IMG/VR virus record: IMGVR_UViG_3300021085_002380
DNA: 64,000 nucleotides
Origin: a virus
Reading direction: 5' to 3' (one strand)
In this document: piece by piece, positions 5,800 through 57,323 of the stretch
How the letters are laid out: each line of letters begins with the position of its first letter
Position numbering within the stretch: the first letter of the stretch is position 1
Position numbers and translations under genes: made by a program
The notes under the pieces: generated by a model
Seen by the model: only the letters and a program-made list of their open reading frames with translations
The model's database searches: none
Told to the model about the DNA's origin: nothing

Positions 5800-6465
5800 T
5801 TAGGATCCTTTCTTATAAGTCGACTTTGTATCAATAGCCACGAAATACGTGACGTCTTCACCTTTAAATTCAGAGATACCTTTACTTGACAGCGTAACTC
5901 TGTAATCTTGAGGTAAGAGTTTCAAATTATCAGTTTTGATAATAATCTTAAACTCATCGGCAGTATTGCCAATTTCTACACCGTAGTCATCCGCTGCCGC
6001 AGACGAACTGTCGATGGCCTTTAGGTAACACTTTCCATCCTGGCCAACAAATGCAACTTCATTAAACTGAAGTACACCCGCTGCTTTTTGGACGGATTGT
6101 AAATCATTCCAAGATACATCAACAACCACATCAGCCGAAGGCAATTCAATGGTTTTTTCAGGCGCCGCGTGTATCATGGAGACGTCGGCAAACGCGTAAC
6201 GGGTACGTTGTTTACCTTCTGTGATTACAAAGTATTTATCATGAAACTCCACGTCTGGTGCAGTGTGGAGTGACAAAATTGATAAAAATCTTGACAAATC
6301 GTAAATACATGCTTCAGACGGAAATTGATCTGGGATTGTTGCAGATGCAATCAATGTTTTTTCAGGCGTAATAGTACGAAGAGTGTTACCTTGCTTCATT
6401 AGGATTGATTTGTTGATAGTAGAGAAACTCTTAAGAATAGTAAGAGTGCGTTCAGAAAATTTCAT
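5800..6465 (-). CDS. gp45: Sliding clamp gp45
   Basis: TILKSFSTINKSI, IYDLSRFLS, LKLLPQDYRV; synteny. Confidence 0.95.
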   Translation of the reverse strand: MKFSERTLTILKSFSTINKSILMKQGNTLRTITPEKTLIASATIPDQFPSEACIYDLSRFLSILSLHTAPDVEFHDKYFVITEGKQRTRYAFADVSMIHAAPEKTIELPSADVVVDVSWNDLQSVQKAAGVLQFNEVAFVGQDGKCYLKAIDSSSAAADDYGVEIGNTADEFKIIIKTDNLKLLPQDYRVTLSSKGISEFKGEDVTYFVAIDTKSTYKKGS

Positions 6466-17956: not shown

Positions 17957-18562
17957 CTACTTTATTCCTTTTACAAAATATTGGCTATATTCCCTACGCC
18001 CAAGGTCATCCTCGTATAGGAAAGTCATTTTGTTTGTATCAATAACCTTTGAAAGACCAGCTTGCTCTATAAGATCATCGCACGATCTTATCAAGTTAAT
18101 ATGACCACGTTTAGTTAAATCGCATCCGCTCAATACGCATAATTTATTATTTGGTATTACCTTTTTCATATGGTAACTATGTTCACAGCTTGTATTGATA
18201 TAGACGTCTGCCTCAGGAATGTTCTTATAATCAAAAGTAACATCCATCATCATATGGCACCAAGGCCCTTCAGTGTTAGTAAGATTAGAAATTTCTTCTG
18301 TAATAGGATCCATGTCTATTAACCTGGTGTATGTTGCGCCTTTTTCTATACAAAAAGATAATGCATAGGCACCAAGGCCAGAGTTTAAAATGTTTACTTG
18401 TTTTCCAGAAACGTCAGCATTGTCTATACACCATTTCTGTATTTCATATTCTGAAACAGAAACTTGCTCGCGCATAGTATCATAAAACCACGGAAAGTCG
18501 TGCTGCCAAAGGTGAAGGTCATGCAAACGCGAAATACGTTCAGCTTCAGGTTCTTTAGTCAT
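17957..18562 (-). CDS. Class I SAM methyltransferase-like protein (INTSCEH type)
   Basis: ILNSGLG, LIDMDP and YINTSCEH; paralog of 23700-24368. Confidence 0.6.
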   Translation of the reverse strand: MTKEPEAERISRLHDLHLWQHDFPWFYDTMREQVSVSEYEIQKWCIDNADVSGKQVNILNSGLGAYALSFCIEKGATYTRLIDMDPITEEISNLTNTEGPWCHMMMDVTFDYKNIPEADVYINTSCEHSYHMKKVIPNNKLCVLSGCDLTKRGHINLIRSCDDLIEQAGLSKVIDTNKMTFLYEDDLGRREYSQYFVKGIK

Positions 18563-19292
18563 CTACGTATTGCCGTTTTTCATCGTGTGTTAAACCTTCA
18601 AGCATATTAATAATTCCTAGCTTATCGTTTTCTTTTAGTTTACGCTGAGTTGTAACTATACCTTCATCATAGTGCTGAAAATGGTTTCTTCTATTGCTAT
18701 AACTATACGGACCAAATTGATGAAACATAAAAGTGTCCATAGAAGGATAAGTAAAAAAGCACTCGTCTAAATTATTTGAAACAAAATCATATATTGGTTT
18801 ATTTTGTCCTGGCTTCCATACCATTACTGAACTGTTGAATAAAGGGCAGCGTGTGATATGGTATTGCCGTTTCCATTCTTCGCCATCATTACCTTCGTAC
18901 CAATAGTTACGAACTAAATATGGTTTTTCATTATTGAGTTCTTCAAAGAAATATGCAAGATCGCCGAGGATGTTTGTATCTAAATCTAAATACAGTAACG
19001 TATCTTCAGGATTAAACTTTTTATCAGCTTCAAACATAGTAAGTTTTCTGAAGTGTGGTATTCCGCCGAAGTCATCTCTGTGATAGCCATTTTGCGTTGT
19101 TTCAACTCTATGGGTTTGCTCCTTTGAAGCTCGGTAGTGTTTAGATTTATAATGATCCCAGGAGTCATCTAGGTTGTCAAAGCATTCAAACTCAAAATCA
19201 ACACTGCAGTTTCGTTTAGCATTCTTGTATAAAGAAGTTACATCATCTTCTGTATATAAGTTTCCCCATTTTGCGCATACGATTCTAAACAT
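18555..19292 (-). CDS. GT-A glycosyltransferase
   Basis: KWGNLY, LYLDLD (DxD) and FNSSVMVW; paralog of 24343-24960. Confidence 0.75.
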   Translation of the reverse strand: MFRIVCAKWGNLYTEDDVTSLYKNAKRNCSVDFEFECFDNLDDSWDHYKSKHYRASKEQTHRVETTQNGYHRDDFGGIPHFRKLTMFEADKKFNPEDTLLYLDLDTNILGDLAYFFEELNNEKPYLVRNYWYEGNDGEEWKRQYHITRCPLFNSSVMVWKPGQNKPIYDFVSNNLDECFFTYPSMDTFMFHQFGPYSYSNRRNHFQHYDEGIVTTQRKLKENDKLGIINMLEGLTHDEKRQYVDD

Positions 19293-19995
19293 CTATATGC
19301 TTCAACACGTATTCAAGTTTTTCAGATTTCTTTTTTCCGTATAAATGCCAAAAGCCAGCCTTTTTATCTTCATTAGTCCAAGGCCTGTCTGTAATGTCGT
19401 CTAAAATATGGTTGTAATAAAACGAAAGCCTTTCTGGTTGTATATTGTTTTCGTTTAACCAATCGCCAACAGTAAGCATATTAGGATGCATTTGAATAGG
19501 TTCATCGTGTACAATATAATTCTTAAAACGGTTAAAGAGGTATTCGCCGAGATCCATGGCGGCCGACTTTGTCATTACTTGAACGCCTCCGTATATAGCC
19601 TTAAATGTTTTTGGATCTTTGCCTCTTTTTCTTAAGTCTTCTTCTTTCCATGGAGCTCCGGCGATATATTTTGTTTCAGGAAAAGGTGCAGCATTTTGTG
19701 TAACATAAAAGTCAGAGTCAGGGAACACAAAAAAATCTATATCTTCATCTTTATGTTTAAGAGCTGCAAGGTATTGGTGATATAAATTACCATGCTCATC
19801 GCCGTATTTTTCATTGGCCATTTCTATAATTTCAAGCTGTTCCTTATAAACAACATGTTTATAGTTATGTCTTTTACAATATCTAGCATAAGATGGTATA
19901 AGAACATTATCATAAAGTTCTGTTAAACTTTCGTTAGGCTCAAGACCAAGCCAAGTACCTGTACCAATAAAAGATTGTATAACAATATATTTCAT
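19285..19995 (-). CDS. Glycosyltransferase-like protein (GT-A)
   Basis: YC.RHNY.H, FPDSDF (DxD), YGGVQV and WHLYG. Confidence 0.6.
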   Translation of the reverse strand: MKYIVIQSFIGTGTWLGLEPNESLTELYDNVLIPSYARYCKRHNYKHVVYKEQLEIIEMANEKYGDEHGNLYHQYLAALKHKDEDIDFFVFPDSDFYVTQNAAPFPETKYIAGAPWKEEDLRKRGKDPKTFKAIYGGVQVMTKSAAMDLGEYLFNRFKNYIVHDEPIQMHPNMLTVGDWLNENNIQPERLSFYYNHILDDITDRPWTNEDKKAGFWHLYGKKKSEKLEYVLKHIDV

Positions 19996-20730
19996 TTAGC
20001 CTAAACCCAATCTATTCATTTCATCGAGAGCGTCTTGTCGTATAGCTCTTAAAATTATACCTCTTCGAACTACATCAGATTTGTTTGGCATAACACTATG
20101 TAATGTGTTTCCATAAAAGCACATAAATCTTCCTAGCTCAATTGTTTCTTGTATGCAGTTATCTTCAAAAAATCTATCATAAGGACTTGGTTCACTATCA
20201 GGCCTTAACATATCTTTTGGATTGTATTTGTATTTATGAGTGCCTGGAACATATCCAGTAGATCCGTTTTCCGGAGTAAATTCTATAAGTGGTACCATAA
20301 ACGTAATACTTAGCGGACCTTCTTGTAAATAATTATCCATTCTCAATTCTGGCATTTGTGGCCAAACATAAGGAGCATCTAAATGAATTCTTACAGGACA
20401 TTCATGTTTACAATTGGATATGATATAACGATTAGTTAGCTGCCATCCCCAAGACGTTTTAAACACTTCGTTACAAACATTTTCTAATGCTGGGAATATA
20501 GTATTATTGATGTAAGTATTATCTTCAGGAATTTGAGACCAATAATAAGCCCAGTCAGGATTTACTATATCTTTTACTTTATCGTTATTGATCCAATCAA
20601 AGTTTTGAAGCATTCCAACAAAAGGAGATAGATTACCTGCAATATCATTCAAGGAAAGGATTTTGGTTTCGTCAAATACCTTTCCTGAAATGGCAAAGCC
20701 ATCATCTTTTAAATCAAATAAGTTTACCAT
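19996..20730 (-). CDS. PhyH-family 2OG-Fe(II) dioxygenase
   Basis: HLDAPY (HxD), ENGSTGYVPGTH and LHSVMPN.S..R. Confidence 0.85.
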   Translation of the reverse strand: MVNLFDLKDDGFAISGKVFDETKILSLNDIAGNLSPFVGMLQNFDWINNDKVKDIVNPDWAYYWSQIPEDNTYINNTIFPALENVCNEVFKTSWGWQLTNRYIISNCKHECPVRIHLDAPYVWPQMPELRMDNYLQEGPLSITFMVPLIEFTPENGSTGYVPGTHKYKYNPKDMLRPDSEPSPYDRFFEDNCIQETIELGRFMCFYGNTLHSVMPNKSDVVRRGIILRAIRQDALDEMNRLGLG

Positions 20731-21278
20731 TTTACTATATAATAATTTTCGTTGAGTGGTTCTATTATTGGATTGTATTCTTTGAGCTCAAACTGCAATT
20801 GTTCTTTTGTGTAGAAGTAGCAGTTTTCATCAAAGCCATCTTTATACCATTCGCCATAAAATACAAAGAATGCGTGGTTGGCATTAAACGCTTTATAATG
20901 GTCTAACAGTTTAGGCAATCCAATATAGTTAGGTGTACCAAACATACTAACTAATACATTACACTCATTGTCAATTGGTTTACTGCAATCCGCTAATTCA
21001 AATTTATAGTCTGGATACTTTTTCTTAGCGTTATTTAACATACCTTCTGATATGTCATATCCTACAAAATAACTTGGGTGAGGCATATTCAAAATAGGAA
21101 TATCTTGTCCTGATCCAACACCTAAAGAAATAATCTTGCCAGGAGATTTTCTTTTCATCCAAAATTTATGAGCATCGTATTCGTCTTTCATGTATGGATT
21201 TGTTTCCCATCCACCTTCTACATATTTTTGTTCGTACCACGCTGAAGCTTCGTCATACTTATCTTTTAAAGTTACCAT
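20724..21278 (-). CDS. Class I SAM-dependent methyltransferase
   Basis: SLGVGSG, GYDISEGML and ADC. Confidence 0.85.
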   Translation of the reverse strand: MVTLKDKYDEASAWYEQKYVEGGWETNPYMKDEYDAHKFWMKRKSPGKIISLGVGSGQDIPILNMPHPSYFVGYDISEGMLNNAKKKYPDYKFELADCSKPIDNECNVLVSMFGTPNYIGLPKLLDHYKAFNANHAFFVFYGEWYKDGFDENCYFYTKEQLQFELKEYNPIIEPLNENYYIVKW

Positions 21279-21952
21279 CCTATATCACCATATTTCATTA
21301 TTGCATCGTCTGTCATTTCGTCAAGTGTTGTGCCTTGCTCGTTATCTAATTGTTTATATCCCCATTCTAATTCTCTACATCCCATACAGTCTTCGCAAGG
21401 AGTATCAGCACTAATGTTACAAGAGATAGTATGGTTTAAAATAGAATCAAAGTTACCTCTTCTAGCTAAATCAATTATATGATATTTTTCAATATGCTCA
21501 AAAGGATTTTTAAGAAAAGAGTCGTTCGTTAACCAGGGTCTTTTAGCAATACCTCTTTGCTCAGGATTCCATCTTGGAAACCATTGAGGATGCGGTGTTA
21601 ATATATTACCACAATAAAGTTCTTCGCAATCTGTATTATCTCGTATTTCCTGAAAAGCTCTACAGAGTCTAGGATAATGAGATGTCATAGGCCAGTGCCA
21701 ACGGCTTTGACCAACTATTTCCAACTCTGTTGAAACGTTTAATTTTTTAAGAATGTTTTCTATTAGTGGTTTGTGAGGATCTTCGCTAGTTTGAACATTA
21801 AATATTCTTATCTTTGTATCCGGAAAGTTATCCGTTAATAATTTAAAAAGAGTGGTACTATCAGCGCCAGAGGACATTAGAACACCGATCTTTTTAGCTG
21901 GGGATAAATTTACAATCCTTTCATCCCACTGCGGTCCACACACAAATTTCAT
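21272..21952 (-). CDS. QueC-like PP-loop ATPase
   Basis: SSGADS PP-loop; PF....K; TISC...PCEDCMGC Zn site. Confidence 0.75.
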   Translation of the reverse strand: MKFVCGPQWDERIVNLSPAKKIGVLMSSGADSTTLFKLLTDNFPDTKIRIFNVQTSEDPHKPLIENILKKLNVSTELEIVGQSRWHWPMTSHYPRLCRAFQEIRDNTDCEELYCGNILTPHPQWFPRWNPEQRGIAKRPWLTNDSFLKNPFEHIEKYHIIDLARRGNFDSILNHTISCNISADTPCEDCMGCRELEWGYKQLDNEQGTTLDEMTDDAIMKYGDIGW

Positions 21953-21954
21953 AA

Positions 21955-23703
21955 TTATGCCTCGTCAAATACTAATTCAAAGTTTTTCGATATAAGATGA
22001 ACCATTATCACGCCTTCAACACCTATTTCTGTTTCCAATTCTCGTTTTGCCATTCCATGCTCTTTGGTACCATGCGTAAACGCTTTTAAGTTTCTATATA
22101 GATGTTTATGATGCCACCTTTTTGGTAATGGAAACAACTTAACTTTATTCTTTTTGGTTTTGTATGCCATGATAGTTTCGTTATCGTACCCAAAGGCAGA
22201 TTGGATTTGTGGGAGATACATTGAAAACTCGTCCTCTTTCAGATCCTTCATCATTTGGATTACATCGTCAATATCACTAAAGTAATCTATTTGTTCCATA
22301 ACAGCGCGGCTTGCAACCATAATACCAGTGTTAAAAATGTATTGGTCAGATTCGTAACCTTCTTCTTCAAGCATAGCATGAGCATTCCAAAATTTACTAT
22401 GCGGACTCCTAAAATCAAAGTTATACCATTTGTAATAGTCGTTACTTGCTTTGCGAACTCCTGCGTTCCGAGCTGTTTGAACTTGACAACAAAAAGTTGT
22501 ACTCGCCGGTACGTAATCAAAGATACTATGCGGTTTTGTAAAATAAACATCGAGATCAACATATAAGACCAAATCATAATCATATGTCAGTTTATCAAGT
22601 AGCCAAACTTTATATAGATTAATTACATCATATTCCGAAAGGTCAGGGAACTTACTCAAAAACTCTTCGTATTGTTCATCACGTTTAAAATGAATGTATT
22701 TTGAACCAATTTCCTTTGCATACCATTCATGGTTTTCAATTAACCTATCTTTATATTGCGCCAGACGATCTTTAGTTCTTTTGCTTTTATTTACATCGTC
22801 ATCAGGCGGGCCAACTGGGTCGTCAAGCTTATCATCAGGAATATCTATATGGATTGAATAGATAGCTGTTGTCTTATCTTTAAAAAACGCGTTGAACTTT
22901 TTATTGATAAAGTGAATTATATTTACATCTTTTATTTTAGTATCGTTAGGTCTGTGATCCACGATCCAATGCCACTTATCGTCCATAATTTGATATGGTA
23001 CTTTGTATTTTTCAAGGATATAGGAAAAGATAGACTCGTTGTTAGCATAATAGTTTATTCTTAAGTATGCTAATTGTCTATGGTCTTTATTGTCAGGATC
23101 TTCAGGTTCGTAAAGTCTAATGTCTTGTATTTTGGCATAAGCTTCTTGCATTCTTTCGACATATTTAATTTGTTTAATATGCTCGCTTTTACCAATCATA
23201 ATACCAGTGTTTATAACATGGTTATCTCCACCATCCAAAAGGTCTTTTGTAATATGATATTTTAGAGTTGGGTTGCGCATTCCAACAGAAGAATATAAAA
23301 CATCATTAACTTCTTTTGATTGGATTTCATCATCCATATCTTTAATCGCAATACCTTTTGACAAATCCAATTCGTCAAATACATTTAGGTCTGTATTAAA
23401 TACCACATCCATGTCAACATACATAACTTCATCGTATTCTTCTGCAAGCTTAGCAAACAAGTGGTGTTTATACAAGTTAACCTTTGTAAATTGCATTTCG
23501 TTTTTAACGTCAAAATCTTTTATTTCATTACGATAAAAAATCCAATCAGCACCGATCTTTTCGCAGTACTCTTTTTTGTTTTTAACTAATCTATCAAAGT
23601 ACTCTTCTACTGACTGTTCGTTTGCCATAAAAATCCAATGGCGTTCCTCGTCATTAACCATGTCGTCAATTTCATCGTAACAACTAAAAATTACTCTTTT
23701 CAT
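21955..23703 (-). CDS. Two-domain glycosyltransferase (internal duplication)
   Basis: Both halves carry NLYK, YVD(M/L)DV, NTGIM and NE(S/T)I. Confidence 0.75.
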   Translation of the reverse strand: MKRVIFSCYDEIDDMVNDEERHWIFMANEQSVEEYFDRLVKNKKEYCEKIGADWIFYRNEIKDFDVKNEMQFTKVNLYKHHLFAKLAEEYDEVMYVDMDVVFNTDLNVFDELDLSKGIAIKDMDDEIQSKEVNDVLYSSVGMRNPTLKYHITKDLLDGGDNHVINTGIMIGKSEHIKQIKYVERMQEAYAKIQDIRLYEPEDPDNKDHRQLAYLRINYYANNESIFSYILEKYKVPYQIMDDKWHWIVDHRPNDTKIKDVNIIHFINKKFNAFFKDKTTAIYSIHIDIPDDKLDDPVGPPDDDVNKSKRTKDRLAQYKDRLIENHEWYAKEIGSKYIHFKRDEQYEEFLSKFPDLSEYDVINLYKVWLLDKLTYDYDLVLYVDLDVYFTKPHSIFDYVPASTTFCCQVQTARNAGVRKASNDYYKWYNFDFRSPHSKFWNAHAMLEEEGYESDQYIFNTGIMVASRAVMEQIDYFSDIDDVIQMMKDLKEDEFSMYLPQIQSAFGYDNETIMAYKTKKNKVKLFPLPKRWHHKHLYRNLKAFTHGTKEHGMAKRELETEIGVEGVIMVHLISKNFELVFDEA

Positions 23704-24368
23704 TTTCCAATTACCATATATTGCGTATAATCTTCAGCCGGTTTCAATTCGCCTTTCCAATATACTGCGTTTAAATTTAATTCTTCTACAAACGAGTCTA
23801 AGCTATCATGAGTATTAATATGACCAGGTTCTGTGTGATAGTTATTGCTTTGAAAACATATTAAAGTGTTATAAGGTTTTTGCCTTAATACTAATTGAAT
23901 ATCATCCTTTTCCATATGCTCGCAACTTGTATTGATAATGAGCTGAAAATGATCTGTCTTTTCAAAATAGTATTCCATTGCGTCATCAGTAATAGGCCAA
24001 ATGTTTTCGTACTCGCCGTCGATTAGTTTATAACTGACCGTTTCACACAGTGGATCAGAGTCTACATTGTGTATTTTAATATCAGGACTTATATGATTTT
24101 TTAATATTATTCCTACAGTACCATACCAACTATCCATAACTAAAATGTCATTTAGTTTACCGTCAGTGTCAGGCCAAAATCTTTCTTTATTAATAAACGG
24201 AAGGAGGTTATGAACAAGCCATTCTTTGCTTTCTAGTTGCACGTCGTTAACAGCGTTCATGACATCAAAGCTTCTATAAAGATCCTCGGACGGATCATAC
24301 TTGCTTTGTTGATATATTTCTTCTATTATTTTAAGTGCATTTTTATAAAGATTTTGTCGGTAACTCAT
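23700..24368 (-). CDS. Class I SAM methyltransferase-like protein (INTSCEH type)
   Basis: SKEWL, SWYG, VDSDP, IINTSCEHM and QSNNY. Confidence 0.65.
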   Translation of the reverse strand: MSYRQNLYKNALKIIEEIYQQSKYDPSEDLYRSFDVMNAVNDVQLESKEWLVHNLLPFINKERFWPDTDGKLNDILVMDSWYGTVGIILKNHISPDIKIHNVDSDPLCETVSYKLIDGEYENIWPITDDAMEYYFEKTDHFQLIINTSCEHMEKDDIQLVLRQKPYNTLICFQSNNYHTEPGHINTHDSLDSFVEELNLNAVYWKGELKPAEDYTQYMVIGK

Positions 24369-24960
24369 ATTTCAATCCATTATACATATCAATTGGCGCA
24401 TCCCATTCCGCCGGGGTTTTAACACTACTTACAATACCGTTTGTAAATGTATTATGCGGTATTTTTTCGTGAACTAAAAATCTATCTATACCTTTATACT
24501 TACGCATAAAATAATCTTTGTTGGACATAAAGTGATCCCATACATGGTTCTGTTCACCAGCTATCCATGTAATTACAGAACTATTTATATGTACATCGTA
24601 GGCGTGTGGTGCCATGTACAAATCGTTTTTCCAATAGTCTCTGATTATCGTCAAGCCGTCCCACTTGATAAACTCAGAAGGATCTCTCTTAATATCCATA
24701 TCTAAATCAAAGAAAAGACATTTGCCTGTAACTGGAAAGTCTTCACTAAACATAGCTAGCTTGTTCCACCAATACTTTAACGATGGTTTGTTAAAACAAG
24801 GTATGAATGGAATATTTAAACCTGCAGGAAATTCTGTATAGCAATAATAATTAGCATTAGGATAAAACTCTTTCAGCTGTGTATGCAGCCTATTCACATG
24901 TTCAGTGTGATACTTATTTCCATGCTTTACAAATATAATATTCATTTTAATTTTCCACAT
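24343..24960 (-). CDS. GT-A glycosyltransferase
   Basis: KHGNKY, WWNKL, FFDLD, INSSVITW and GIDRF. Confidence 0.75.
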   Translation of the reverse strand: MWKIKMNIIFVKHGNKYHTEHVNRLHTQLKEFYPNANYYCYTEFPAGLNIPFIPCFNKPSLKYWWNKLAMFSEDFPVTGKCLFFDLDMDIKRDPSEFIKWDGLTIIRDYWKNDLYMAPHAYDVHINSSVITWIAGEQNHVWDHFMSNKDYFMRKYKGIDRFLVHEKIPHNTFTNGIVSSVKTPAEWDAPIDMYNGLKYELPTKSL

Positions 24961-26114
24961 ACCTTAACACAAGCGTGACAAGCTGTTTCAGGAGTTTCCC
25001 AATGTTCAGGTAACTTTTGTTTGAACCACGTTGATTCCATTATATCATAGATACTACTATAATGTAAATTAAAATCTTTCCAATTATCAATATATTCTTG
25101 CATTAATGGATGTTTGGGGTCAGCATACTTTCCAGTTGACGTAATCATATATTGAGTGTTTTCACCTTTTAAATATAATGCTGCTCGTTCTAACGATGTC
25201 GAAAGATAACAACATGGTGATACCATACCACTTGCTTGTACTTTAATGTTGTTTTCGCCAATAGCTAAACAATTTATTTCGTATTCTTTCTTTTTTTGTT
25301 TGACAGGCTCAGCTACCTGTGGTATAATAGGTTTATCCTCAATAGGTAATAATTTAGATTGATTTGATTTAATATTAGTAACAATATCTTTATGTCTATG
25401 ATCACGTACTCTGCGTGTCCTACGTTCCAATCCTTGTTCTCTATCTTGTCGTGTAACTTGTTCTAATGTTTCTGTTTTACCATCTTCATTTAAGAATTCA
25501 TAAACAGAACCTAACTGAAAGTTATTTCCTTCAACTTCATCAAACTTAATTGGTCTTTGAGCACGTTCGTTAACCATATTACGAATATCTTCGAGATAGT
25601 CTTGATTGTGTTTAAATAAAACAGTAAGTACTTTGATATTTGCATCAGTACCTGAGGTTACTTCTATTGCGTCCAATACTTTATTGAGATCGGATCCTCG
25701 GCGATAAAAGCTATGCATTTCTTGGTCAATACCGTCAACATCAAATATAAGTTGAAGTCTTGAACCACCCCAAGCCGCAAGGTTAAACCAAAACTCTTCA
25801 TCTCTCATAGATCCATTTGTATTTATAGAAATACGGCAAGTACCTTCTAACGCAAGATACTTAACAATATCCATTAGATCTTTACACATCCCAGGATCAC
25901 CATAAGTTCCTGAAAAATGAATACACCCAATTGACTGTATAATAGTTGGAGGAAACCACTTCATAAAATCTTTTAAACTGACAGACGTAAGCGGTAACCA
26001 CTCCATCTTATTTAAATTATTTCTATGATCTGTCCTTGAACATTGCGGACATTTAAGATTACAATGAGTAGTAAGTTCAACGTCAAATGTTAAGTTATGC
26101 CATCTCCACGTCAT
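24942..26114 (-). CDS. Radical SAM protein with C-terminal SPASM/twitch domain
   Basis: CNLKCPQC, GTYGDP and TNGS; C-term C...PCCY...CVKVC. Confidence 0.9.
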   Translation of the reverse strand: MTWRWHNLTFDVELTTHCNLKCPQCSRTDHRNNLNKMEWLPLTSVSLKDFMKWFPPTIIQSIGCIHFSGTYGDPGMCKDLMDIVKYLALEGTCRISINTNGSMRDEEFWFNLAAWGGSRLQLIFDVDGIDQEMHSFYRRGSDLNKVLDAIEVTSGTDANIKVLTVLFKHNQDYLEDIRNMVNERAQRPIKFDEVEGNNFQLGSVYEFLNEDGKTETLEQVTRQDREQGLERRTRRVRDHRHKDIVTNIKSNQSKLLPIEDKPIIPQVAEPVKQKKKEYEINCLAIGENNIKVQASGMVSPCCYLSTSLERAALYLKGENTQYMITSTGKYADPKHPLMQEYIDNWKDFNLHYSSIYDIMESTWFKQKLPEHWETPETACHACVKVCGKLK

Positions 26115-27193
26115 GTGATTTCTATATCTGTGTATTTAGTCATTCTAGATCCTTCATATGAATCCAAGCACCAATTTTCAATTTGACTAATTAAGTGCTC
26201 TGCTATGCCGTAGTTTCTTAAATTACTATGTTTAATTTTTTTTAATTCTAATTGCAAGTAATCAATTATTTCAACTAATTCTTTTGGAGGCATATGCTTT
26301 ATAGATAAATGTTTTGGATAAAGAATAGTATTAAACCAAAGATTGCATTTGTGCTTATCAGTGAACTTAACAAATTCTATCATTTCATCCCAATTATTAT
26401 TCATAGGGTTAACCATAATAGATAAGCTTCGTTTATTTGTATGGCAATAATTTTTAAATATATCAAAATATTTCATAAGTGTATTAAAGTTACCATTTAC
26501 TCTTATTTCTTCATATCGTTCTGGAATTAAACTATCAATACTAATATTTAAATGGATATTACATTTATCAAGTATTCCTTGAACTCTTTTATTATAAACA
26601 GTACCATTGGTTGCGATATTAACTTTAAGCTCTGGTTTAATTTCAGCTACAACATCAAGTAAATCTAATAATATTTTTTGAGCAAAGGGTTCACCGCCAT
26701 TTACTCTTAATTCAGTAAGGTGTGGAATAAACTCTCGCATTTGTTCTAAAAACGAATCATCAAATATTTGTGGTAATGGTGGAAGCTTATCTCTATTTTT
26801 TCTAATGCCGGAACTTAAATTGCCATCGCACATAATGCATTCAAGATTACATTGATTACTTAATTCAATTTCCATAAGAGACGGCATAGTATTTACTGGA
26901 AACTTTTCATATGCTTTCGCCAATGGCCAGACATTGTTATCAATATCTTTTTTGCATTCTACACATCTATTTAAAAACTTGTTTTGCTTTAATGCTGTGC
27001 GGTACTTTTCAAAATGTTCGCCTGTCCATATATCCATTAAAGATCTATCTTTACTCCACTGGTCGCAGGCACCAGGAAGCTTCCAGCAAGGAGAAACATT
27101 TCCTTGGAGTGTGATATACATATTATTGAATGGCGCGTTGCAGGGTATATCCTGCCCGTATAATTTTTTCACCATAACATTATCTCCGCCCAC
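26111..27193 (-). CDS. Radical SAM protein with N-terminal twitch/SPASM-like domain
   Basis: CNAPF..VSPC..CVEC, then CNLECIMC, GGEPF, TNGT and ISID. Confidence 0.9.
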   Translation of the reverse strand: MGGDNVMVKKLYGQDIPCNAPFNNMYITLQGNVSPCWKLPGACDQWSKDRSLMDIWTGEHFEKYRTALKQNKFLNRCVECKKDIDNNVWPLAKAYEKFPVNTMPSLMEIELSNQCNLECIMCDGNLSSGIRKNRDKLPPLPQIFDDSFLEQMREFIPHLTELRVNGGEPFAQKILLDLLDVVAEIKPELKVNIATNGTVYNKRVQGILDKCNIHLNISIDSLIPERYEEIRVNGNFNTLMKYFDIFKNYCHTNKRSLSIMVNPMNNNWDEMIEFVKFTDKHKCNLWFNTILYPKHLSIKHMPPKELVEIIDYLQLELKKIKHSNLRNYGIAEHLISQIENWCLDSYEGSRMTKYTDIEIT

Positions 27194-28272
27194 TCTTTAA
27201 ACGAATCATTAAAAGATTCATTTCTGATTTTATCTAATTTGATAGTTTCGTTATGAAATTGTAAAAGTGCGTTATCGCGTTCAACATTCATAAACTTTGT
27301 TATTGTTTCATATTTATTACCGAATTTTTCATTGACTTCTCTTTTAGCATCGTTAGACAAGTATTGAACTGATAAGTATTTTGGTTCATGTAATAATCCG
27401 TTAGATACAGCTATTTTGTTGTTATTACACCATTCATCTAACTCGTTTAAATAATAAATGTTGAAATTATTAACAGTTCTATAAACCAAAATACAAAACT
27501 TAGGATAGTTTTTAACCATATTAAATATATTGTCTTGTATAAGATTCCATTTAGAATTACCACGCTGGTACTCTAATCTATCTCCAATATCATCTACACT
27601 TAACGCTATAGTTACTTTCTTAAACTTCTTCATTTTATCCATCAAGGCTGGAACATAGAACATGCCGTTTGTAGTAATGTTAAGATGTATATTTTTAGCG
27701 TATTCACTAGATGAAATTAGGTCTATTAATTTTTTATTTTCAGCGCTAAAGAAAGGTTCACCACCAGTTAACTCAAGATATACCATGTTAGGAAGCCATT
27801 CTTCAAAGAATAGTCTTTCATTATCTGTATCAATTATTTTGTTTGATAACCAATACGGATTTTGCATGTTTCGTTCTTTTGCAATTGAACTTGACGCGGT
27901 TGCGCTGCACATCCTACACTTTAAATTACACACGTTTGAAAGTTTCAAGTCAAACATTCGAGGAGAAGAAGTGGTTATATCATAATTAGCGTGAGCGTCA
28001 CGCTCTGCAAACATTTGCCTAAAACTGTGTATACCGACATCTTCTTCTTTCCAACACCAAGAGCATTCTTCTGGCTCTTCGCCGTTTATAAAAGCTTGCC
28101 GCAAGGCCTGCATTTCAGCGCCGTTATACAACTCAACTAACGTGCCATCTTGCATCCAAGGCATTTTATGTTTTGTTTGTCGGTCAGGCTGTTCATATCT
28201 GCAGCACGGTCTGATAGATCCATTTACATCAGTAGACAAATTAATCCAAGGAGCTGTGCAAAATCTACCCAT
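27169..28272 (-). CDS. Radical SAM protein with N-terminal twitch domain
   Basis: CTAPW..RPCC..CSWC, then CNLKCRMC, GGEPF and TTNG. Confidence 0.9.
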   Translation of the reverse strand: MGRFCTAPWINLSTDVNGSIRPCCRYEQPDRQTKHKMPWMQDGTLVELYNGAEMQALRQAFINGEEPEECSWCWKEEDVGIHSFRQMFAERDAHANYDITTSSPRMFDLKLSNVCNLKCRMCSATASSSIAKERNMQNPYWLSNKIIDTDNERLFFEEWLPNMVYLELTGGEPFFSAENKKLIDLISSSEYAKNIHLNITTNGMFYVPALMDKMKKFKKVTIALSVDDIGDRLEYQRGNSKWNLIQDNIFNMVKNYPKFCILVYRTVNNFNIYYLNELDEWCNNNKIAVSNGLLHEPKYLSVQYLSNDAKREVNEKFGNKYETITKFMNVERDNALLQFHNETIKLDKIRNESFNDSFKEWAEIMLW

Positions 28273-28612
28273 CTAATTTTTTTGAACACTGTATCATACA
28301 CAATCTATGCGGGCGGTCACTATCCCAAGATTCTGGAAGAGTTTTTGTATACCATTTATGATTTAATATTTCTTCTATAGAATTAGTTTCTAAGTTTAAA
28401 TCTTTTTCATTCTCGTAATAAGACTTCATAAGAGGATGAACAACATCATCAACACCTTTAGCTATTAAGTCTGGATCATTGTTTTGATGCTTTACTTTAC
28501 CCTTGTAACCAGTATTACCTAGATAACAACACGGAAAAACTTGCTTATCTGGATTGATGAGAATTTTATTCATAAGCATCCATTCACACTTTATACTATT
28601 TTTATTTTGCAT
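28265..28612 (-). CDS. Stand-alone SPASM/twitch domain protein
   Basis: IKC...VFPCCYL...CMIQC aligns by eye to the C-terminus of 24942-26114; GAGGA RBS before the ATG at 28612. Confidence 0.75.
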   Translation of the reverse strand: MQNKNSIKCEWMLMNKILINPDKQVFPCCYLGNTGYKGKVKHQNNDPDLIAKGVDDVVHPLMKSYYENEKDLNLETNSIEEILNHKWYTKTLPESWDSDRPHRLCMIQCSKKLDG

Positions 28613-29405
28613 TTGCGTCCTCAGGAGTCCACAGACCACTTTTCACGTGTTTATACCCAATTTTCTTATGCCAATTATGATCTCTTAATGCTGGGAGACC
28701 GTTACCTTTATCCTCAAATAATGGGTTGTTAAAATTAGTAACCTCTTCTAATATTCCTTTGTTACCATTCTCATCAATAAACTCTTCCTTGCCGTTTTCA
28801 TGAAATCTATTAGAAGGTTGTATTAGATGGCATGTTACACCTAACTCGTTATAGCACATATCGAGTATTTTGTCAAGGTATTCTTCATTATGTTTAAACG
28901 CGATTACATGAGCAAACGCGTTGCCTCCGGCCGCAGTATAACATTGTACGTGAGATTTAAGTTTTTCAAAATCTACTTTGCGTCGATAATTAGAATGCAT
29001 TTCTTGGTTAATGCCTTCAATATCAAATATAACTTGAAGTCTACCAGTCTTCTTATTTAAAAGCCCGACATCCCACCAAAACTCGTCATCTCGCATTCCA
29101 CCGTTTGTATTGATTTGCACATTTGAGCCTGAATTATGTAAGATATATTCAATAATATTATAGATATCTTTACACATAAAGGGGTCGCCCCAAGTACCGC
29201 ATATTTCAAATCTATTAATTGAAACCATATCTTGAGGTGTGAATGCTTTTTTAAATTCTTCTAGAGACCACTGAACAAGTGGAAGCCAATCAACTTTTCC
29301 TAATCCATTTATATTTGTTCTATGACACTGTGGACATCCAGCATTACAATAAGTTGATAAGTCTACCCACACATTAAGTGCGAGGTTTTTTGTGTTATAT
29401 TTCAT
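28602..29405 (-). CDS. Radical SAM core domain protein
   Basis: CNAGCPQC, GTWGDP and TNGG; paralog of the N-terminus of 24942-26114. Confidence 0.9.
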   Translation of the reverse strand: MKYNTKNLALNVWVDLSTYCNAGCPQCHRTNINGLGKVDWLPLVQWSLEEFKKAFTPQDMVSINRFEICGTWGDPFMCKDIYNIIEYILHNSGSNVQINTNGGMRDDEFWWDVGLLNKKTGRLQVIFDIEGINQEMHSNYRRKVDFEKLKSHVQCYTAAGGNAFAHVIAFKHNEEYLDKILDMCYNELGVTCHLIQPSNRFHENGKEEFIDENGNKGILEEVTNFNNPLFEDKGNGLPALRDHNWHKKIGYKHVKSGLWTPEDANAK

Positions 29406-30112
29406 TATTCTTTAGTCTCAATTAACTCGTCTATTAATGCAATACCTTGTGTGATACGTTTTACTCTACGGATCTTTGATTTAATTTCTTTTGGAGCTGC
29501 TTTTATAAAATCTTGGTCCAATGCCCAAAGTTTGAATTTAAATAGTTCGTCACCTTGGTCGTTGTGGTTCATAAGAACTTCAAGCAACGCGTTGTCAACC
29601 TGAAATTCAGTCTTTTTAATTTTGCTTTCAGTGAATGCTAGCTCTTCTTGCTGCGCGTCAATTCGTTCTTTACTTTTTTGGATAAGAGTTCTTTTTTCTT
29701 CAAGCCAACCGTGGTGTCTTGCAATATCACCTTTAACAACGTCTCGTTGCTGTTCTAATTTTTTGATATCGTTTACACCTTGATCTTTTTCTGCTTGAAC
29801 GCGATCTCTTTCTGCCCTAAGATTATTTAAACCAATCATTTCGCGAGCAATATAATTTGCTCTTTGTTGAACAGCGTTATTAAAAGAAGCTGCGTGTTGT
29901 CTTTTAAATTCTGCGGTTGCATCTAATAATTCTTTATCACCCCAACCATCAGCTTGCAACTCTTTAAAATCCTTAGATTTAGGATCCGCTTCTATAATAT
30001 GTTTATAGAGTTTTGTATCCTCAGGATCATCGGATTTAAATAGTATTTCTATTGTATCATATTTTTCATTAATATAATGCGCATCTTCAATGCGTCCACT
30101 AAATATTGCCAT
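29405..30112 (-). CDS. Coiled-coil protein, possible fibre assembly factor
   Basis: Central heptad-rich region; follows putative structural genes. Confidence 0.55.
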   Translation of the reverse strand: MAIFSGRIEDAHYINEKYDTIEILFKSDDPEDTKLYKHIIEADPKSKDFKELQADGWGDKELLDATAEFKRQHAASFNNAVQQRANYIAREMIGLNNLRAERDRVQAEKDQGVNDIKKLEQQRDVVKGDIARHHGWLEEKRTLIQKSKERIDAQQEELAFTESKIKKTEFQVDNALLEVLMNHNDQGDELFKFKLWALDQDFIKAAPKEIKSKIRRVKRITQGIALIDELIETKE

Positions 30113-30125
30113 GTTATAATCACCT

Positions 30126-31073
30126 TTAATATGTTGTAAGTTTTAAATAATATGTGGTTAAAGCGGTAGGTTCGCCGTTTGGAAATTCCTGGGCATAGTA
30201 GTAATTTGTGTCTGGATCAACGTCGCCTTCGGTATAACCGCTGGCAGAAGCTCCATCTAAAACAGTATCAACCATGCCAGTACCTTTCGTTGTACCTGCG
30301 CCATTAATACTATAAGAAAGCCTAGATCCAGTTGTGGTTGCGGCTGCATACGAAATATAATCTTCAAACAGCGCAGAAATTTGAGCATCACTATATACTC
30401 TTAAACTACCATCTGTATCAATATACATAAGATCTACCCACCCAGTTTCTCCATATTCGCTATCGCCAGCGTCTCTTTGAAATAAGTAATATGAATTCAC
30501 TGTTTCAGGTTGGTCTAAAGTTTCGCCTGTAATACCAACATCATCGTATAAGGCTTCATCAGCACGCGTATCAACGAATATCGGAGTAGCTGAAACTCTT
30601 GTAGCGCCTGTAATACTAGATAAAGTTGAAACAAAATATTCTCCTGCACTATTATCTGCGACAATTGTATCTAATGCTGGTTTTATAAACGTATCAATAA
30701 AATCAGTTTCATCCATAGCTTGTATTTCATTGCTGCTATTATAATATACTGGAAAGGATCTAGGATCACTAGAAGCAGTAGGTTGAGTACCGCCAGTAAC
30801 CGTTTCCCTTATATTTGATGATGTTGTTTCGATAGCTTCAATATCAGGTGTTTGGCCGGCCGGAAGGTATGCGCCATCACCGACTGAAACCGCGCCTGCT
30901 TTGTATCTCGTATCAGTCATTTGGAATTTTGCGTCGCCGCCTGATGAAACAACTGTAAGTGTAACACCTGGGTTTTGGCCATACGCTCGCACAACTTGAT
31001 CCACGACTGTGTCAAGATTAGTCGCGGTTAATATTTCTCCGCCGCTGTAATATAATGGTGATCTAGCCGCCAT
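30126..31073 (-). CDS. Putative virion structural protein (paralog of 31293-32270)
   Basis: Acidic, T/S/G/A-rich; shared VSATP.F.DTRA and YYAQEFPNG.P...TYYL; late operon. Confidence 0.65.
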   Translation of the reverse strand: MAARSPLYYSGGEILTATNLDTVVDQVVRAYGQNPGVTLTVVSSGGDAKFQMTDTRYKAGAVSVGDGAYLPAGQTPDIEAIETTSSNIRETVTGGTQPTASSDPRSFPVYYNSSNEIQAMDETDFIDTFIKPALDTIVADNSAGEYFVSTLSSITGATRVSATPIFVDTRADEALYDDVGITGETLDQPETVNSYYLFQRDAGDSEYGETGWVDLMYIDTDGSLRVYSDAQISALFEDYISYAAATTTGSRLSYSINGAGTTKGTGMVDTVLDGASASGYTEGDVDPDTNYYYAQEFPNGEPTALTTYYLKLTTY

Positions 31074-31082
31074 GAGTTTTCC

Positions 31083-31268
31083 TTACGCGGCCGAGCCGCC
31101 ATAAATTGTTTTTACAGCCGTACCATTTGCATCTTTAATAACTAGCTTATTATCAACGTTTACAATTGCATCATTAATAGCGGTCCGTGTTGTATCATCT
31201 GTGCCAGTTATACCGTTGAGCGCTTTAAGGTCGGTGATAACTGTATCAGTTCCTACTTTAATTGCCAT
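31083..31268 (-). CDS. Small putative virion protein (paralog of 32283-32465)
   Basis: AGGAG RBS; I.GTD...AIN.AI.N..N.L.I..A.GT.VKT shared with the paralog. Confidence 0.7.
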   Translation of the reverse strand: MAIKVGTDTVITDLKALNGITGTDDTTRTAINDAIVNVDNKLVIKDANGTAVKTIYGGSAA

Positions 31269-31292
31269 GTCTTTTCTCCTATCAGATATTTA

Positions 31293-32270
31293 TCAATCCG
31301 CGGTTATTCTTAAATAATATGTTACTCTTGTTGCAGGTGTACCATTTGGAAATTCTTGCGCGTAATACGTAGTTGTTGCTGCGTCAAATCTAGTAGTATA
31401 ACCTTGCGCCGATGTACCAGACAAATATGTATCAGCCATACCAGTACCACAGTTGTTTCCGCCACCATTAATATTGTAGCGTATTCTATAAGGAGTAACA
31501 GAAGATGCTACATACTTTAAATGATCTCTTAACATATTTCGCCAAGCAGTTGTACTGTATTGTCTTATGTCACCAGTTGACTCGTCAATATAAATTGGAA
31601 TTTCAGCTGGTGCTAGTTGCACTTGAACAATCTGATGTAGGTAATAATCATTAATGTCAACTTGTTGGTCGTTGTTTTCTGGAATGCCCGCAGCTGTATA
31701 TGCAGTACTACTTGCACGAGTATCTGTAAATACAGGAGTAGCTGAAACTAATTGTGCTCCTGTGATGGAACTTAGGGTACTAATAATATAGGTACCAGTT
31801 CTGCTGGCATCAGCCCCAGATCCGCCAGCAGTCATTCTAGTAATTGTTGGATATATGAACGTATCATAAAAGTCTGCTTTAGTCATAGATCGTATATGAC
31901 CAGACGATGTAACGTACGCAGGAAACGCATAATTTTCATCGGTGTATGTTGGCTCGTTAGTCACATTAACCGTTTGGGAAATAGTTGCAGACGTAGTATC
32001 AATATTGCTGATGTCATCAGTAACTGCTTCTGTTGGAAACGTTTGCCCTGCGCCAGTATTAGAACCAGCGTCACCTGCTTGTTTTCTTCTATCAGTCATA
32101 TTTCCAAGATTACCGCCAGATGAAACAACAGATAATTCTACAGCTGTACTAGTGGTATAACGATATGCGGCATAATTGTATATGCTATCCATTTGAGTGG
32201 AATTAGCAGAGTATACATATGTGATAAAAGTATTGGACGTGTCTAGATACGCCGGCGCTCTAACTGTCAT
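31293..32270 (-). CDS. Putative virion structural protein
   Basis: Thr-rich paralog of 30126-31073. Confidence 0.65.
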   Translation of the reverse strand: MTVRAPAYLDTSNTFITYVYSANSTQMDSIYNYAAYRYTTSTAVELSVVSSGGNLGNMTDRRKQAGDAGSNTGAGQTFPTEAVTDDISNIDTTSATISQTVNVTNEPTYTDENYAFPAYVTSSGHIRSMTKADFYDTFIYPTITRMTAGGSGADASRTGTYIISTLSSITGAQLVSATPVFTDTRASSTAYTAAGIPENNDQQVDINDYYLHQIVQVQLAPAEIPIYIDESTGDIRQYSTTAWRNMLRDHLKYVASSVTPYRIRYNINGGGNNCGTGMADTYLSGTSAQGYTTRFDAATTTYYAQEFPNGTPATRVTYYLRITAD

Positions 32271-32282
32271 GTTAAAAACCTT

Positions 32283-32465
32283 TTAGTTTTGAGCGCAGAA
32301 TAAAGTTTTAACTTCAGTGCCTGCAGCGTTATAAATTCTTAAAACGTTGTTTTGGTTTTTAATAGCAGTATTGATTGCAGCATCAGAAACTGAGTCCGTT
32401 CCTGAAATATTTGCTAGCTCGCCAGCATTTGTAATGCGAGTTGTTCCGTCTGTTTGTAATGCCAT
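32283..32465 (-). CDS. Small putative virion protein
   Basis: GGAGGAG RBS; first gene after the late promoters. Confidence 0.7.
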   Translation of the reverse strand: MALQTDGTTRITNAGELANISGTDSVSDAAINTAIKNQNNVLRIYNAAGTEVKTLFCAQN

Positions 32466-32501
32466 TTTCATCTCCTCCTATAATTCGACTAGGCTATGTT
32501 T

Positions 32502-32509
32502 TATTTATA
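32502..32509 (-). promoter_or_regulatory. T4-type late promoter
   Basis: TATAAATA. Confidence 0.8.
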
Positions 32510-32524
32510 ACAATTATCCTTTTC

Positions 32525-32540
32525 TTTATTTATAAATAAA
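32525..32540. promoter_or_regulatory. Bidirectional late promoter
   Basis: Palindrome TTTATTTATAAATAAA gives TATAAATA on both strands. Confidence 0.75.
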
Positions 32541-32586: not shown

Positions 32587-32937
32587 ATGGCAGGTAAGAA
32601 AAAAGAAGCTGCACCATCGAAATATGACCCCAAAGCCGCAGATTATAACGGCGATGGAGTGATCACTAACGAAGAACTTGATATGCAGCGTAAAATGTTA
32701 GAAATGGAAGATGCTGATGCGCAACGTGATGCTATTCGTAAGATGGCATGGTTTGCTTTATTTGGCTTGTTGCTTTACCCAATAGGGATAATGCTAACTT
32801 CTTGGTTGGGATTAGATACTGCAGCACAGCTAATTGCAGATATTGCTCCAACATATTTTGCTTCAATTGCAGTCTTAGTTTCAGCCTTCTTTGGTGCTGA
32901 TGCATTGAAAGGCCGCGGCGGAAATAGCGACGACTAA
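32587..32937 (+). CDS. EF-hand-motif membrane protein (holin-like, 2 TM)
   Basis: DYNGDGVITNEE loop followed by two TM helices; AGGAG RBS. Confidence 0.7.
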   Translation: MAGKKKEAAPSKYDPKAADYNGDGVITNEELDMQRKMLEMEDADAQRDAIRKMAWFALFGLLLYPIGIMLTSWLGLDTAAQLIADIAPTYFASIAVLVSAFFGADALKGRGGNSDD

Positions 32938-56784: not shown

Positions 56785-56792
56785 TATAAATA
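56785..56792 (+). promoter_or_regulatory. T4-type late promoter
   Basis: TATAAATA upstream of gp3. Confidence 0.8.
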
Positions 56793-56795
56793 TCT

Positions 56796-56824
56796 ATACT
56801 AACTGATTCGGGACAGAATGTAAA
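56796..56824 (-). promoter_or_regulatory. Early promoter with GAATCAG driving the topoisomerase genes
   Basis: TTTACA-N17-TAGTAT. Confidence 0.7.
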
Positions 56825-56831
56825 TAGGAAA

Positions 56832-57323
56832 ATGAACATGCAGACAAATTATTTGAATCCAACATCCTTTTTGGTGTCTATTGAAAGAATACCAAATGTA
56901 GTGTTTACAACACAGCGGGCTATCTTGCCTTCAGTTTCGATGTCTGCAGTTACTACGCCTAACCCGTTGAAAAATATTTATCAAGTTCCTGACCATCTTG
57001 AGTATGCTGAACTTGACTTGAGTTTTGTCCTTAACGAAAATCTTGATAATTATATAGAAATTTTAAATTGGATGGAAGGTCTTGCAACTCCTGAAAGTTT
57101 GTCGCAATTTGATCGTTTAAAGAACACAAGGGATGGCTTAAAGTCAGATATCGTCATTATAGTAACAAACAGCCACAAGAACCCAAATATAGAGTTTAGG
57201 TTTAAAGACGCGTTCCCACTTACAATTTCTCCAATCAGTTTAGATATTACACCTGGCGATGTCGTAAATCCTGAAGTAACCGTCACATTCCGTCATAACG
57301 GTTTCACAATCACTCAATTATAA
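56832..57323 (+). CDS. gp3: Tail completion protein gp3 (tail-tube fold)
   Basis: NYLNPTSF, ENLDNY.EI.NW and F.DAFP; late promoter; gp3-uvsY-uvsW synteny. Confidence 0.8.
   Translation: MNMQTNYLNPTSFLVSIERIPNVVFTTQRAILPSVSMSAVTTPNPLKNIYQVPDHLEYAELDLSFVLNENLDNYIEILNWMEGLATPESLSQFDRLKNTRDGLKSDIVIIVTNSHKNPNIEFRFKDAFPLTISPISLDITPGDVVNPEVTVTFRHNGFTITQL

Follow-up and report, generated by a model that had tools for sequence, protein, structure and literature searches.

A candidate late fiber-tip and glycan gene cassette in a marine T4-like phage

The locus described here raises the question of why a phage should carry, within one run of genes, two pairs of virion-like proteins followed by a series of radical S-adenosylmethionine (SAM) enzymes and glycosyltransferases (GTs), and of what these enzymes act on. 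The run, termed the block, is present in a 64,000-nucleotide (nt) stretch of DNA, IMG/VR virus record IMGVR_UViG_3300021085_002380, which was analyzed in full and is referred to as the window. This stretch has a G+C content of ~36%, encodes a clamp loader, topoisomerase II subunits, a UvsW-type helicase, a gp46/47-like nuclease and UvsY, and is DNA of a marine T4-like myophage. The block contains 19 open reading frames (ORFs), all on the minus strand and running from 32471 to 17957, with intergenic gaps of 24 nt or less and overlaps at 13 junctions (Table 1). At its head are genes for two small proteins, S1 and S2, each followed by that for a larger protein, L1 or L2, of the YAQEFPNG family. 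S1 and S2 are 45% identical and L1 and L2 are 40% identical, the S-L pairs being an old tandem duplication. The answer that we tentatively favor is that the enzymes decorate proteins of the fiber tip.

Searches with Pfam and PHROGs gave nothing useful for the S, L and coiled-coil proteins, and a DNA search with the whole block produced no matches in the phage collection. The L family itself is large: at least 526 relatives of L2 were detected in a word-indexed search and 455 cluster representatives were detected for L1 in an exhaustive search, nearly all of them unnamed marine metagenome proteins of 300 to 330 amino acids (aa). Eighty viral contigs were then fetched with a 308-aa L relative. 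The usual gene order, present in Pelagibacter phage Mosig EXVC030M and in dozens of contigs, was a VrlC-like gene, a gene for a 74-aa protein, a variable fiber gene and L. Mosig was the sole cultured phage with an L gene (Mosig_00097, the tailed fiber being Mosig_00098), and upstream of it are baseplate genes, VrlC, the 74-aa gene and a gene for a 311-aa protein. The protein encoded immediately before L varied from 123 to 1027 aa, but 52 of 60 distinct cases had a shared end of the form L.I.NS.G..KT.YGAGA. When a hidden Markov model (HMM) of these 52 fiber tails was run against the 482 ORFs of the window, S2 (E 1.6e-6) and S1 (E 4.4e-5) were the sole matches; S is therefore a fiber cut to its last ~50 residues. 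Downstream, a member of the coiled-coil family followed L in all 98 loci with at least 900 nt of sequence after it. Membership of the L proteins in the tail-fiber neighborhood of related phages is supported.

No match to S2 was found among cultured phages by tblastn, and a scan of viral contigs matched a single contig, the same as that of locus L001. The 74-aa gene after VrlC and the variable fibers were considered as homologues of S and L, respectively, and both were ruled out as unrelated. Two minority classes of upstream protein were also observed. In one, the protein ends in ...GFAPGAI (L043, L044, L048, L051, L076, L077, L081 and L082) and the downstream GT and methyltransferase (MT) genes are kept. 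In the other, a 123-aa protein ends in ...DFP.KT (L050 and L054 to L056), and no enzyme homologues were found downstream of L in this class, including in 7.5 kb of sequence in L056.

L is built of three repeats of ~105 aa, as detected by comparison of repeat profiles with hhalign (E 2.5e-8 for repeats 1 and 3, 1.3e-6 for repeats 2 and 3 and 1.2e-4 for repeats 1 and 2). An AlphaFold model of L2, generated from a 60-sequence alignment, had a predicted local distance difference test (pLDDT) score of 95 and a predicted template modeling (pTM) score of 0.89. The L proteins contain 22 to 25% Ser plus Thr, in comparison to 6 to 12% for the enzymes. Several L relatives (P0135, P0165, P0249, P0201, P0142, P0181 and P0235) carry further domains in loops or in C-terminal extensions. 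The inserted domains include a dockerin-like calcium-binding repeat and a jelly-roll-like module, while the extensions are of 250 to 340 aa with Ig/Calx-like repeats. A role for L as an exposed scaffold fits with its relatives carrying such inserted and appended domains.

Linkage to the enzymes was assessed in the 62 L loci for which 4 kb or more of downstream sequence was available, scoring homologues within 8 kb. Homologues of the window GT or MT proteins were present downstream of L in 56 of these loci and radical SAM homologues in 34, while upstream of L no GT, MT or radical SAM homologue was found in any of the 62. The enzyme genes shared the strand of L in 28 loci, lay on the opposite strand in 22 and were mixed in 6. 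Searching in reverse, from the MT-like family, recovered L in all of the 14 closest loci. Across 82 L loci, homologues of the 222-aa transferase were present in 57 and of the QueC-like protein in 6; none had a homologue of the 184-aa methyltransferase. In Mosig, L is followed by an epimerase gene and then by a cluster with genes for three 'MoaA-like' radical SAM proteins, an aminotransferase, a carbamoyltransferase and a methyltransferase.

Clusters of this type are already known. For pelagimyophages and cyanomyophages, a host recognition cluster is described as a variable island between VrlC and gp14 that holds fibers, many GTs, of which GT8 is the commonest, and radical SAM cassettes that vary between close relatives (Zaragoza-Solas et al. 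2020, PMC7029224). Most L loci have exactly that setting after VrlC. In the loci termed X-type, L is single-copy and adjoins VrlC in the complete genomes, and the position between VrlC and gp14, beside tail fibers, is retained. The window block shares the content of the cluster (fiber-related genes, GT8-type GTs and variable radical SAM cassettes) but lies outside the interval from VrlC to the neck gene gp14. As in the other loci with an S gene (S-type), it lies among non-structural genes, detached from VrlC and the baseplate genes, with the fiber reduced to S-L pairs and with a late promoter of its own.

Among these S-type cassettes, close relatives have the order S1, L1, S2, L2, coiled coil, radical SAM genes, GT, MT, GT. 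In the more distant cassettes recovered by the reverse search (44 to 53% identity), a single S-L pair or two are accompanied by the coiled coil, from 0 to 5 radical SAM genes and the GT-MT-GT trio, and two of them (L094 and L099) consist of S, L, coiled coil, GT, MT and GT without any radical SAM gene. Their upstream neighbors are non-structural. In two long S-type records, L is located ~50 kb from VrlC, and the fiber adjacent to VrlC lacks the tail and has neither L nor the coiled coil after it. In any neighborhood, the GT-MT-GT trio thus stays together with the tail motif, L and the coiled coil, which argues for a functional connection over mere synteny. The passages searched in the host recognition cluster paper (PMC7029224) do not mention the L family, the fiber tail motif or the coiled-coil partner. 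What is new is the triad of L, tail and coiled coil, together with S as a separate protein and the late cassette in its detached position.

The next question is when the block is expressed. Two TATAAATA boxes precede S1, but this motif occurs 11 times in the whole window, where 10.3 occurrences are expected by chance. The case for a late promoter rests on box position and conservation because the motif count is at chance level. A Shine-Dalgarno sequence lies between the proximal box and the S1 ATG, and in close relatives this box is kept as GATAAATA or TATAAATA at -38. All of the distant S-type cassettes have TATAAATA at -39 to -75 before S. In total, a [T/G]ATAAATA box was present 38 to 75 nt before S in 13 of 13 S-type loci, which fall into seven classes of upstream sequence (probability by chance, ~2e-14). 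Of the two boxes of the window, conservation is limited to the proximal one; L001, L087 and L088 have not kept the distal box. Also encoded in the window are a late sigma factor resembling gp55 (60339-60842; phrog_234, E 7.5e-61) and a gp45-like clamp (5800-6465; phrog_223, processivity factor, E 7e-72). An internal control was provided by a TATAAATA box 40 nt before a gene for a 163-aa structural-type protein at 56832 (phrog_45; region 56785-57323). Transcription of the block as a late, T4-type gp55-dependent unit is supported by these sequence features. The phrog_45 gene was seen to adjoin uvsY, as gene 25 does in T4. The distal box was observed to be part of a palindrome, TATTTATAAATA (32527-32538), with a plus-strand copy at 32531-32538, 48 nt before a divergent gene (32587-32937, plus strand) for a 116-aa protein with a hydrophobic C-terminal half; this box may serve both directions. 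The last gene of the block (17957..18562) is followed by a gap of 58 nt that contains a good sigma70-like site (17953 to 17925).

With respect to the enzymes, the GT assignments depended on profiles. The 205-aa and 245-aa GT families are homologous (hhalign, 99.9%), and the profile of the 245-aa family matched 5gvv (E 2.7e-5), which is the GT8 enzyme GlyE (PMC7826918). For the 582-aa protein, an atlas search gave a GT8-like lead; 15 of 33 homologues of its halves matched PF01501 (best E 3.6e-7), while the N-terminal half of the protein itself scored 17.8 bits against a cutoff of 24.3. The GT8-like family profile had no match among PDB sequences. Each GT family alignment contained an invariant D..D pair (D97/D99, D85/D87 and D103/D105), the metal-binding DxD motif of a putative GT-A fold. 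The 236-aa protein was negative against the GT profiles by hhalign. The 222-aa and 201-aa proteins are a single family, with GGWYG and INTSCEH motifs, whose profile matched spermidine synthases (E 2e-7); methyl transfer is not the sole possibility for this pair because the profile is closest to those enzymes. The 226-aa protein scored 18.5 bits against the QueC model TIGR00364 (cutoff, 150), and folE, queD and queE were not seen in the block. The 367-aa enzyme matched the full N_Twi_rSAM model NF033640 (model positions 3-397); its twitch domain is N-terminal to a radical SAM core with a CX3CX2C motif. A radical SAM core and a SPASM domain are encoded by separate genes at 28265-29405, and the same split was found in L018, L058, L065 and L078. 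Frameshift or sequence error was ruled out as its origin by the different frames and junctions of the five loci, and the split is a real two-subunit arrangement.

The gene content can be compared to that of the original prediction, which had described ~17 co-oriented genes headed by two boxes. The boxes and the common orientation were confirmed, but the number of ORFs is 19. Its listed order was inexact in the distal part, where MT-like and QueC-like genes are interleaved with the GT genes. The duplicated pairs of a small and a ~320-aa protein were borne out by the paralogue identities. Four radical SAM enzymes plus a free SPASM domain were confirmed by Pfam and NCBIfam, which detected four cores of the radical SAM type and four domains of the SPASM/twitch type, as was a PhyH dioxygenase (PF05721, E 1.8e-10). 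Of the four GT-A genes proposed, those for the 205-, 582- and 245-aa proteins were upheld through profiles, without a direct Pfam match, and the 236-aa protein stays a lead. The QueC-like ATPase has the PP-loop and a QueC-like C terminus but no full QueC match, and the three methyltransferase-like proteins resolved into the spermidine synthase-like pair and a 184-aa protein with weak matches.

In the model that we infer for S-L contact, virion location, sugar chemistry and acceptor, the block would be a self-contained late 'fiber-tip plus glycan' cassette with a structural and an enzymatic half. S, or the fiber tail, would be the docking element for L, the three tails of a trimeric fiber possibly sitting on the three L repeats, such that L would be a single-chain pseudo-trimer and a surface-exposed tip or adhesin module rather than a cytoplasmic enzyme. 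The enzymatic half, predicted to be soluble and cytoplasmic, would comprise five GT8-clan GT-A domains, two transferases of the spermidine synthase fold and a variable set of twitch/SPASM radical SAM enzymes, to which this phage would add as extras a PP-loop amidotransferase-like enzyme, a methyltransferase and the PhyH dioxygenase. These enzymes may build a short glycan from nucleotide sugars and then edit it. Attachment would occur late, before virion assembly, with the fiber or one of the co-expressed proteins (S, L or the coiled coil) as acceptor. Virion fiber proteins are thus the preferred acceptor in our reading of the sequences, with a host glycan as the main rival. The original prediction had also envisaged a late unit and fiber or head proteins as substrates, and had proposed testing for co-occurrence of the YAQEFPNG family with radical SAM and GT genes in marine phage contigs. 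The late unit and the co-occurrence were supported (box before S in seven upstream sequence classes, with gp55-like and gp45 genes in the window; 56 of 62 loci with GT or MT homologues and 34 of 62 with radical SAM homologues). As to substrates, L does have a tail-fiber context, while head proteins found no support. The observation was confirmed and its interpretation partly supported.

Several points weigh against decoration of fiber-tip proteins. The genes beyond 21955 (QueC-like, MT, PhyH, GT-like, GT and MT-like) are not common even to close relatives, though some of them were found again in X-type loci. A model of a read-through S2-L2 fusion had pLDDT values of 32 to 54 for the S part and no confident docking. 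Foldseek comparison of the L2 model with PDB and BFVD gave no match at E ≤0.001. With VIA-align, two MACPF proteins matched through their C-terminal domains at Z values of 6.2 and 6.1, a level (~6) that falls within common arrangements, and an MABP beta-prism domain matched at 4.9; the modeled L fold thus has no informative match, and its likeness to a beta-prism is weak. A near-consensus sigma70-like site with an extended -10 element lies before the GT genes, within a 64-nt stretch that is invariant in 4 of 4 close relatives and has variable flanks. This site, which was not found in the distant cassettes, could allow early expression. There are distant clusters of MT and radical SAM genes that lack both L and GT genes, and the enzymes are thus not bound to L in every phage. 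Lipopolysaccharide is a frequent substrate of GT8 enzymes, and those acting on it likewise lack membrane helices. Finally, the linkage itself can also arise if the enzymes alter the receptor that is recognized by L.

This last possibility leads to the alternative that the enzymes remodel the host envelope glycan recognized by L, thereby blocking superinfection or the sticking of progeny to debris. An adhesin and the enzymes masking its receptor must match and would hence travel together, so linkage to a recognition protein is predicted, as seen. It is also the published reading of the pelagimyophage cluster, for which modification of the host O-chain was proposed from the GT8 family and lipopolysaccharide-type genes (PMC7029224); similar genes are read likewise in the cyanophage papers. 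The GT8-like calls fit with such an activity, as does the weak beta-prism likeness of L, this being a fold that often binds glycans or membranes. Exclusion functions, however, are usually early, whereas the cassette has a conserved late box. No transmembrane helices were predicted in any of the 19 block proteins, and no flippase or polymerase, lipid-carrier transferase, ligase or membrane protein was found in the block. In addition, half of the loci have the enzymes on the L strand, and throughout the window block the structural genes and those for the enzymes are contiguous or overlapping. Receptor masking is, in our view, rather unlikely.

It is improbable, but conceivable, that L and the coiled-coil protein are fiber-assembly chaperones that do not stay in the virion and that the enzymes make a sugar for another target, for example, hydroxymethylcytosine in the phage DNA, with adjacency reflecting a shared hypervariable island. 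In T-even phages (gp37-gp38), and likewise with Tfa, the gene behind the fiber gene encodes a partner that binds the C-terminal tip of the fiber, and a position just behind the fiber gene is classic for an assembly chaperone (T4 gp38, lambda Tfa). No similarity of L to gp38 or Tfa in sequence or fold turned up in searches that included no test aimed at these proteins. L differs from them in being a single chain of three repeats, with a docking tail that can be a separate 60-aa protein. The island is known to be hypervariable (PMC7029224). The linkage, however, survives movement of the cassette ~50 kb away from the fiber and baseplate genes, and the inserted or appended binding-type domains of L relatives would be unusual for a chaperone.

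The remaining alternative concerns the radical SAM enzymes, most characterized SPASM members of which modify peptides. These enzymes could act on S or the fiber tail by cross-linking or epimerizing it, in the manner of peptides made on ribosomes and modified after translation (RiPPs), with the GTs then decorating the peptide. The nearest solved relative of the N-terminal-twitch enzyme, although not a close one, is SkfB, which has a peptide substrate (E 1.3e-5), and S is small and duplicated with a conserved end motif. That of the 390-aa enzyme, again not close, is BlsE, a cytosylglucuronate decarboxylase acting on a sugar nucleoside (E 7e-5). Peptide maturation is improbable given that precursor and maturase do not always occur together as in RiPP systems, S-L cassettes being kept without radical SAM genes in L094 and L099 and radical SAM and MT genes being present in many phages without S or L, beside nucleotide-sugar enzymes, and given that the tail motif is unchanged across radical SAM gene numbers of 0 to 5. 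As they are optional, these genes are therefore not needed for S or L as such. A triad of an INTSCEH transferase, a C-SPASM radical SAM and an N-twitch radical SAM was observed on more than 500 viral contigs without L or GT8-like genes (L103 to L170), some copies being adjacent to genes for nucleotide-sugar dehydrogenase and epimerase, with runs of up to seven radical SAM genes. Its MT-like members were 31 to 35% identical, and many were on contigs of jumbo-phage size (several >280 kb). One triad locus is flanked by genes for a UDP-glucose/GDP-mannose dehydrogenase, an NAD epimerase/dehydratase and a 2-oxoglutarate (2OG) oxygenase. Editing of nucleotide sugars is suggested because of this locus and the Mosig cluster. 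The enzymes as a group look sugar-directed, and the radical SAM members most likely edit a sugar and not a peptide.

Glycosylation of virion proteins by phage enzymes has precedents. In mycobacteriophages, GTs encoded beside structural genes add sugars to virion proteins of the phage itself, close to the C termini (Freeman et al. 2023, PMC10527164). The targets there are reported to be capsid and tail-tube subunits, in actinobacteriophages, and the enzymes are few, with no known radical SAM tailoring. The window cassette differs in its fiber-tip setting, and its target is putative. In chlorovirus PBCV-1, an atypical methylated glycan is assembled on a virion protein, within the cytoplasm, by the virus-encoded soluble multi-domain GT-A enzymes A064R and A111/114R, among which are a GT8-like domain and a fusion of two GTs with a methyltransferase (PMC7826918). 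PBCV-1 is a eukaryotic virus, the glycan is N-linked to the major capsid protein and there are no radical SAM enzymes (PMC7826918); the window GT and the PBCV-1 enzymes share a likeness to 5gvv and LgtC, and the sequence comparison is limited to that. As for NF033640, we know of no reaction for this family.

Table 1. Features of the block and its upstream region (coordinates refer to the window)
Feature	Position	Strand	Basis or remark
Proximal T4-type late promoter box TATAAATA	32502..32509	-	30 nt before S1 start codon
Distal TATAAATA box	32527..32534	-	Part of palindrome
S1, 62 aa, stand-alone fiber-tail copy	32283..32471	-	Fiber-tail HMM E 4.4e-5
L1, 325 aa, YAQEFPNG family, three-repeat, fiber-tip-like	31293..32270	-	Family search
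S2, 61 aa, S1 paralogue, fiber-tail module	31083..31268	-	Fiber-tail HMM E 1.6e-6
L2, 315 aa, three ~105-aa repeats	30126..31073	-	hhalign and predicted fold
Coiled-coil protein, 235 aa	29405..30112	-	Partner downstream of L
Radical SAM core, 267 aa, without own SPASM	28602..29405	-	PF04055; paralogue of 390-aa enzyme
Free SPASM-domain protein, 124 aa	28265..28639	-	PF13186 just under Pfam cutoff; 38-nt overlap with 267-aa gene
N-terminal-twitch radical SAM, 367 aa	27169..28272	-	NF033640, 294 bits (cutoff, 170)
N-terminal-twitch-like radical SAM, 360 aa	26111..27193	-	NF033640, 146 bits (below cutoff); Pfam SPASM 18-81, radical SAM 109-277
Radical SAM with C-terminal SPASM, 390 aa	24942..26114	-	Pfam/NCBIfam
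Sigma70-like site TTTACA-18-TGnTATAAT	25039..25068	-	Inside 390-aa radical SAM gene, 108 nt before first GT gene
GT-A glycosyltransferase, 205 aa, GT8 clan by transitive homology	24343..24960	-	phrog_1962 E 1.8e-11
Class I SAM-dependent transferase fold, 222 aa, GGWYG and INTSCEH motifs	23700..24368	-	Family profile
Two-domain GT8-like glycosyltransferase, 582 aa	21955..23703	-	PF01501 matches in homologues
PP-loop ATPase, QueC-like zinc-binding C terminus, 226 aa	21272..21952	-	PF06508 E 5.7e-6, residues 147-201 only
Class I methyltransferase, 184 aa	20724..21278	-	Weak matches
PhyH-type Fe/2OG dioxygenase, 244 aa	19996..20730	-	PF05721 E 1.8e-10
Possible GT-A protein, 236 aa, lead only	19285..19995	-	Atlas neighbors are nucleotide-diphospho-sugar transferase clusters
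GT8-like glycosyltransferase, 245 aa	18555..19292	-	Family profile vs 5gvv_A E 2.7e-5
Second INTSCEH-family transferase, 201 aa, last gene	17957..18562	-	Aligned with 222-aa family

The phages that infect SAR11-type marine bacteria rank with the most abundant viruses, and almost nothing is known of their host recognition. The fiber tail, the three-repeat L protein and the coiled coil are a very common, unannotated set that marks the distal ends of fibers and is nearly always tied to sugar-building enzymes. A more far-reaching proposal, which we consider doubtful, is that L is a new receptor-binding tip, a pseudo-trimer that caps a trimeric fiber via its three tails and carries a glycan edited by radical SAM enzymes for recognition or shielding, the entire unit of tip and glycan being a mobile cassette that phages could exchange or that could operate without a fiber, as S-L. 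The S-L cassette is small, soluble and self-contained. If decoration of the fiber tip is correct, marine T4-like phages would join mycobacteriophages and giant algal viruses as cases of virion glycosylation, and the uncharacterized family of N-terminal-twitch radical SAM enzymes would gain a biological role.

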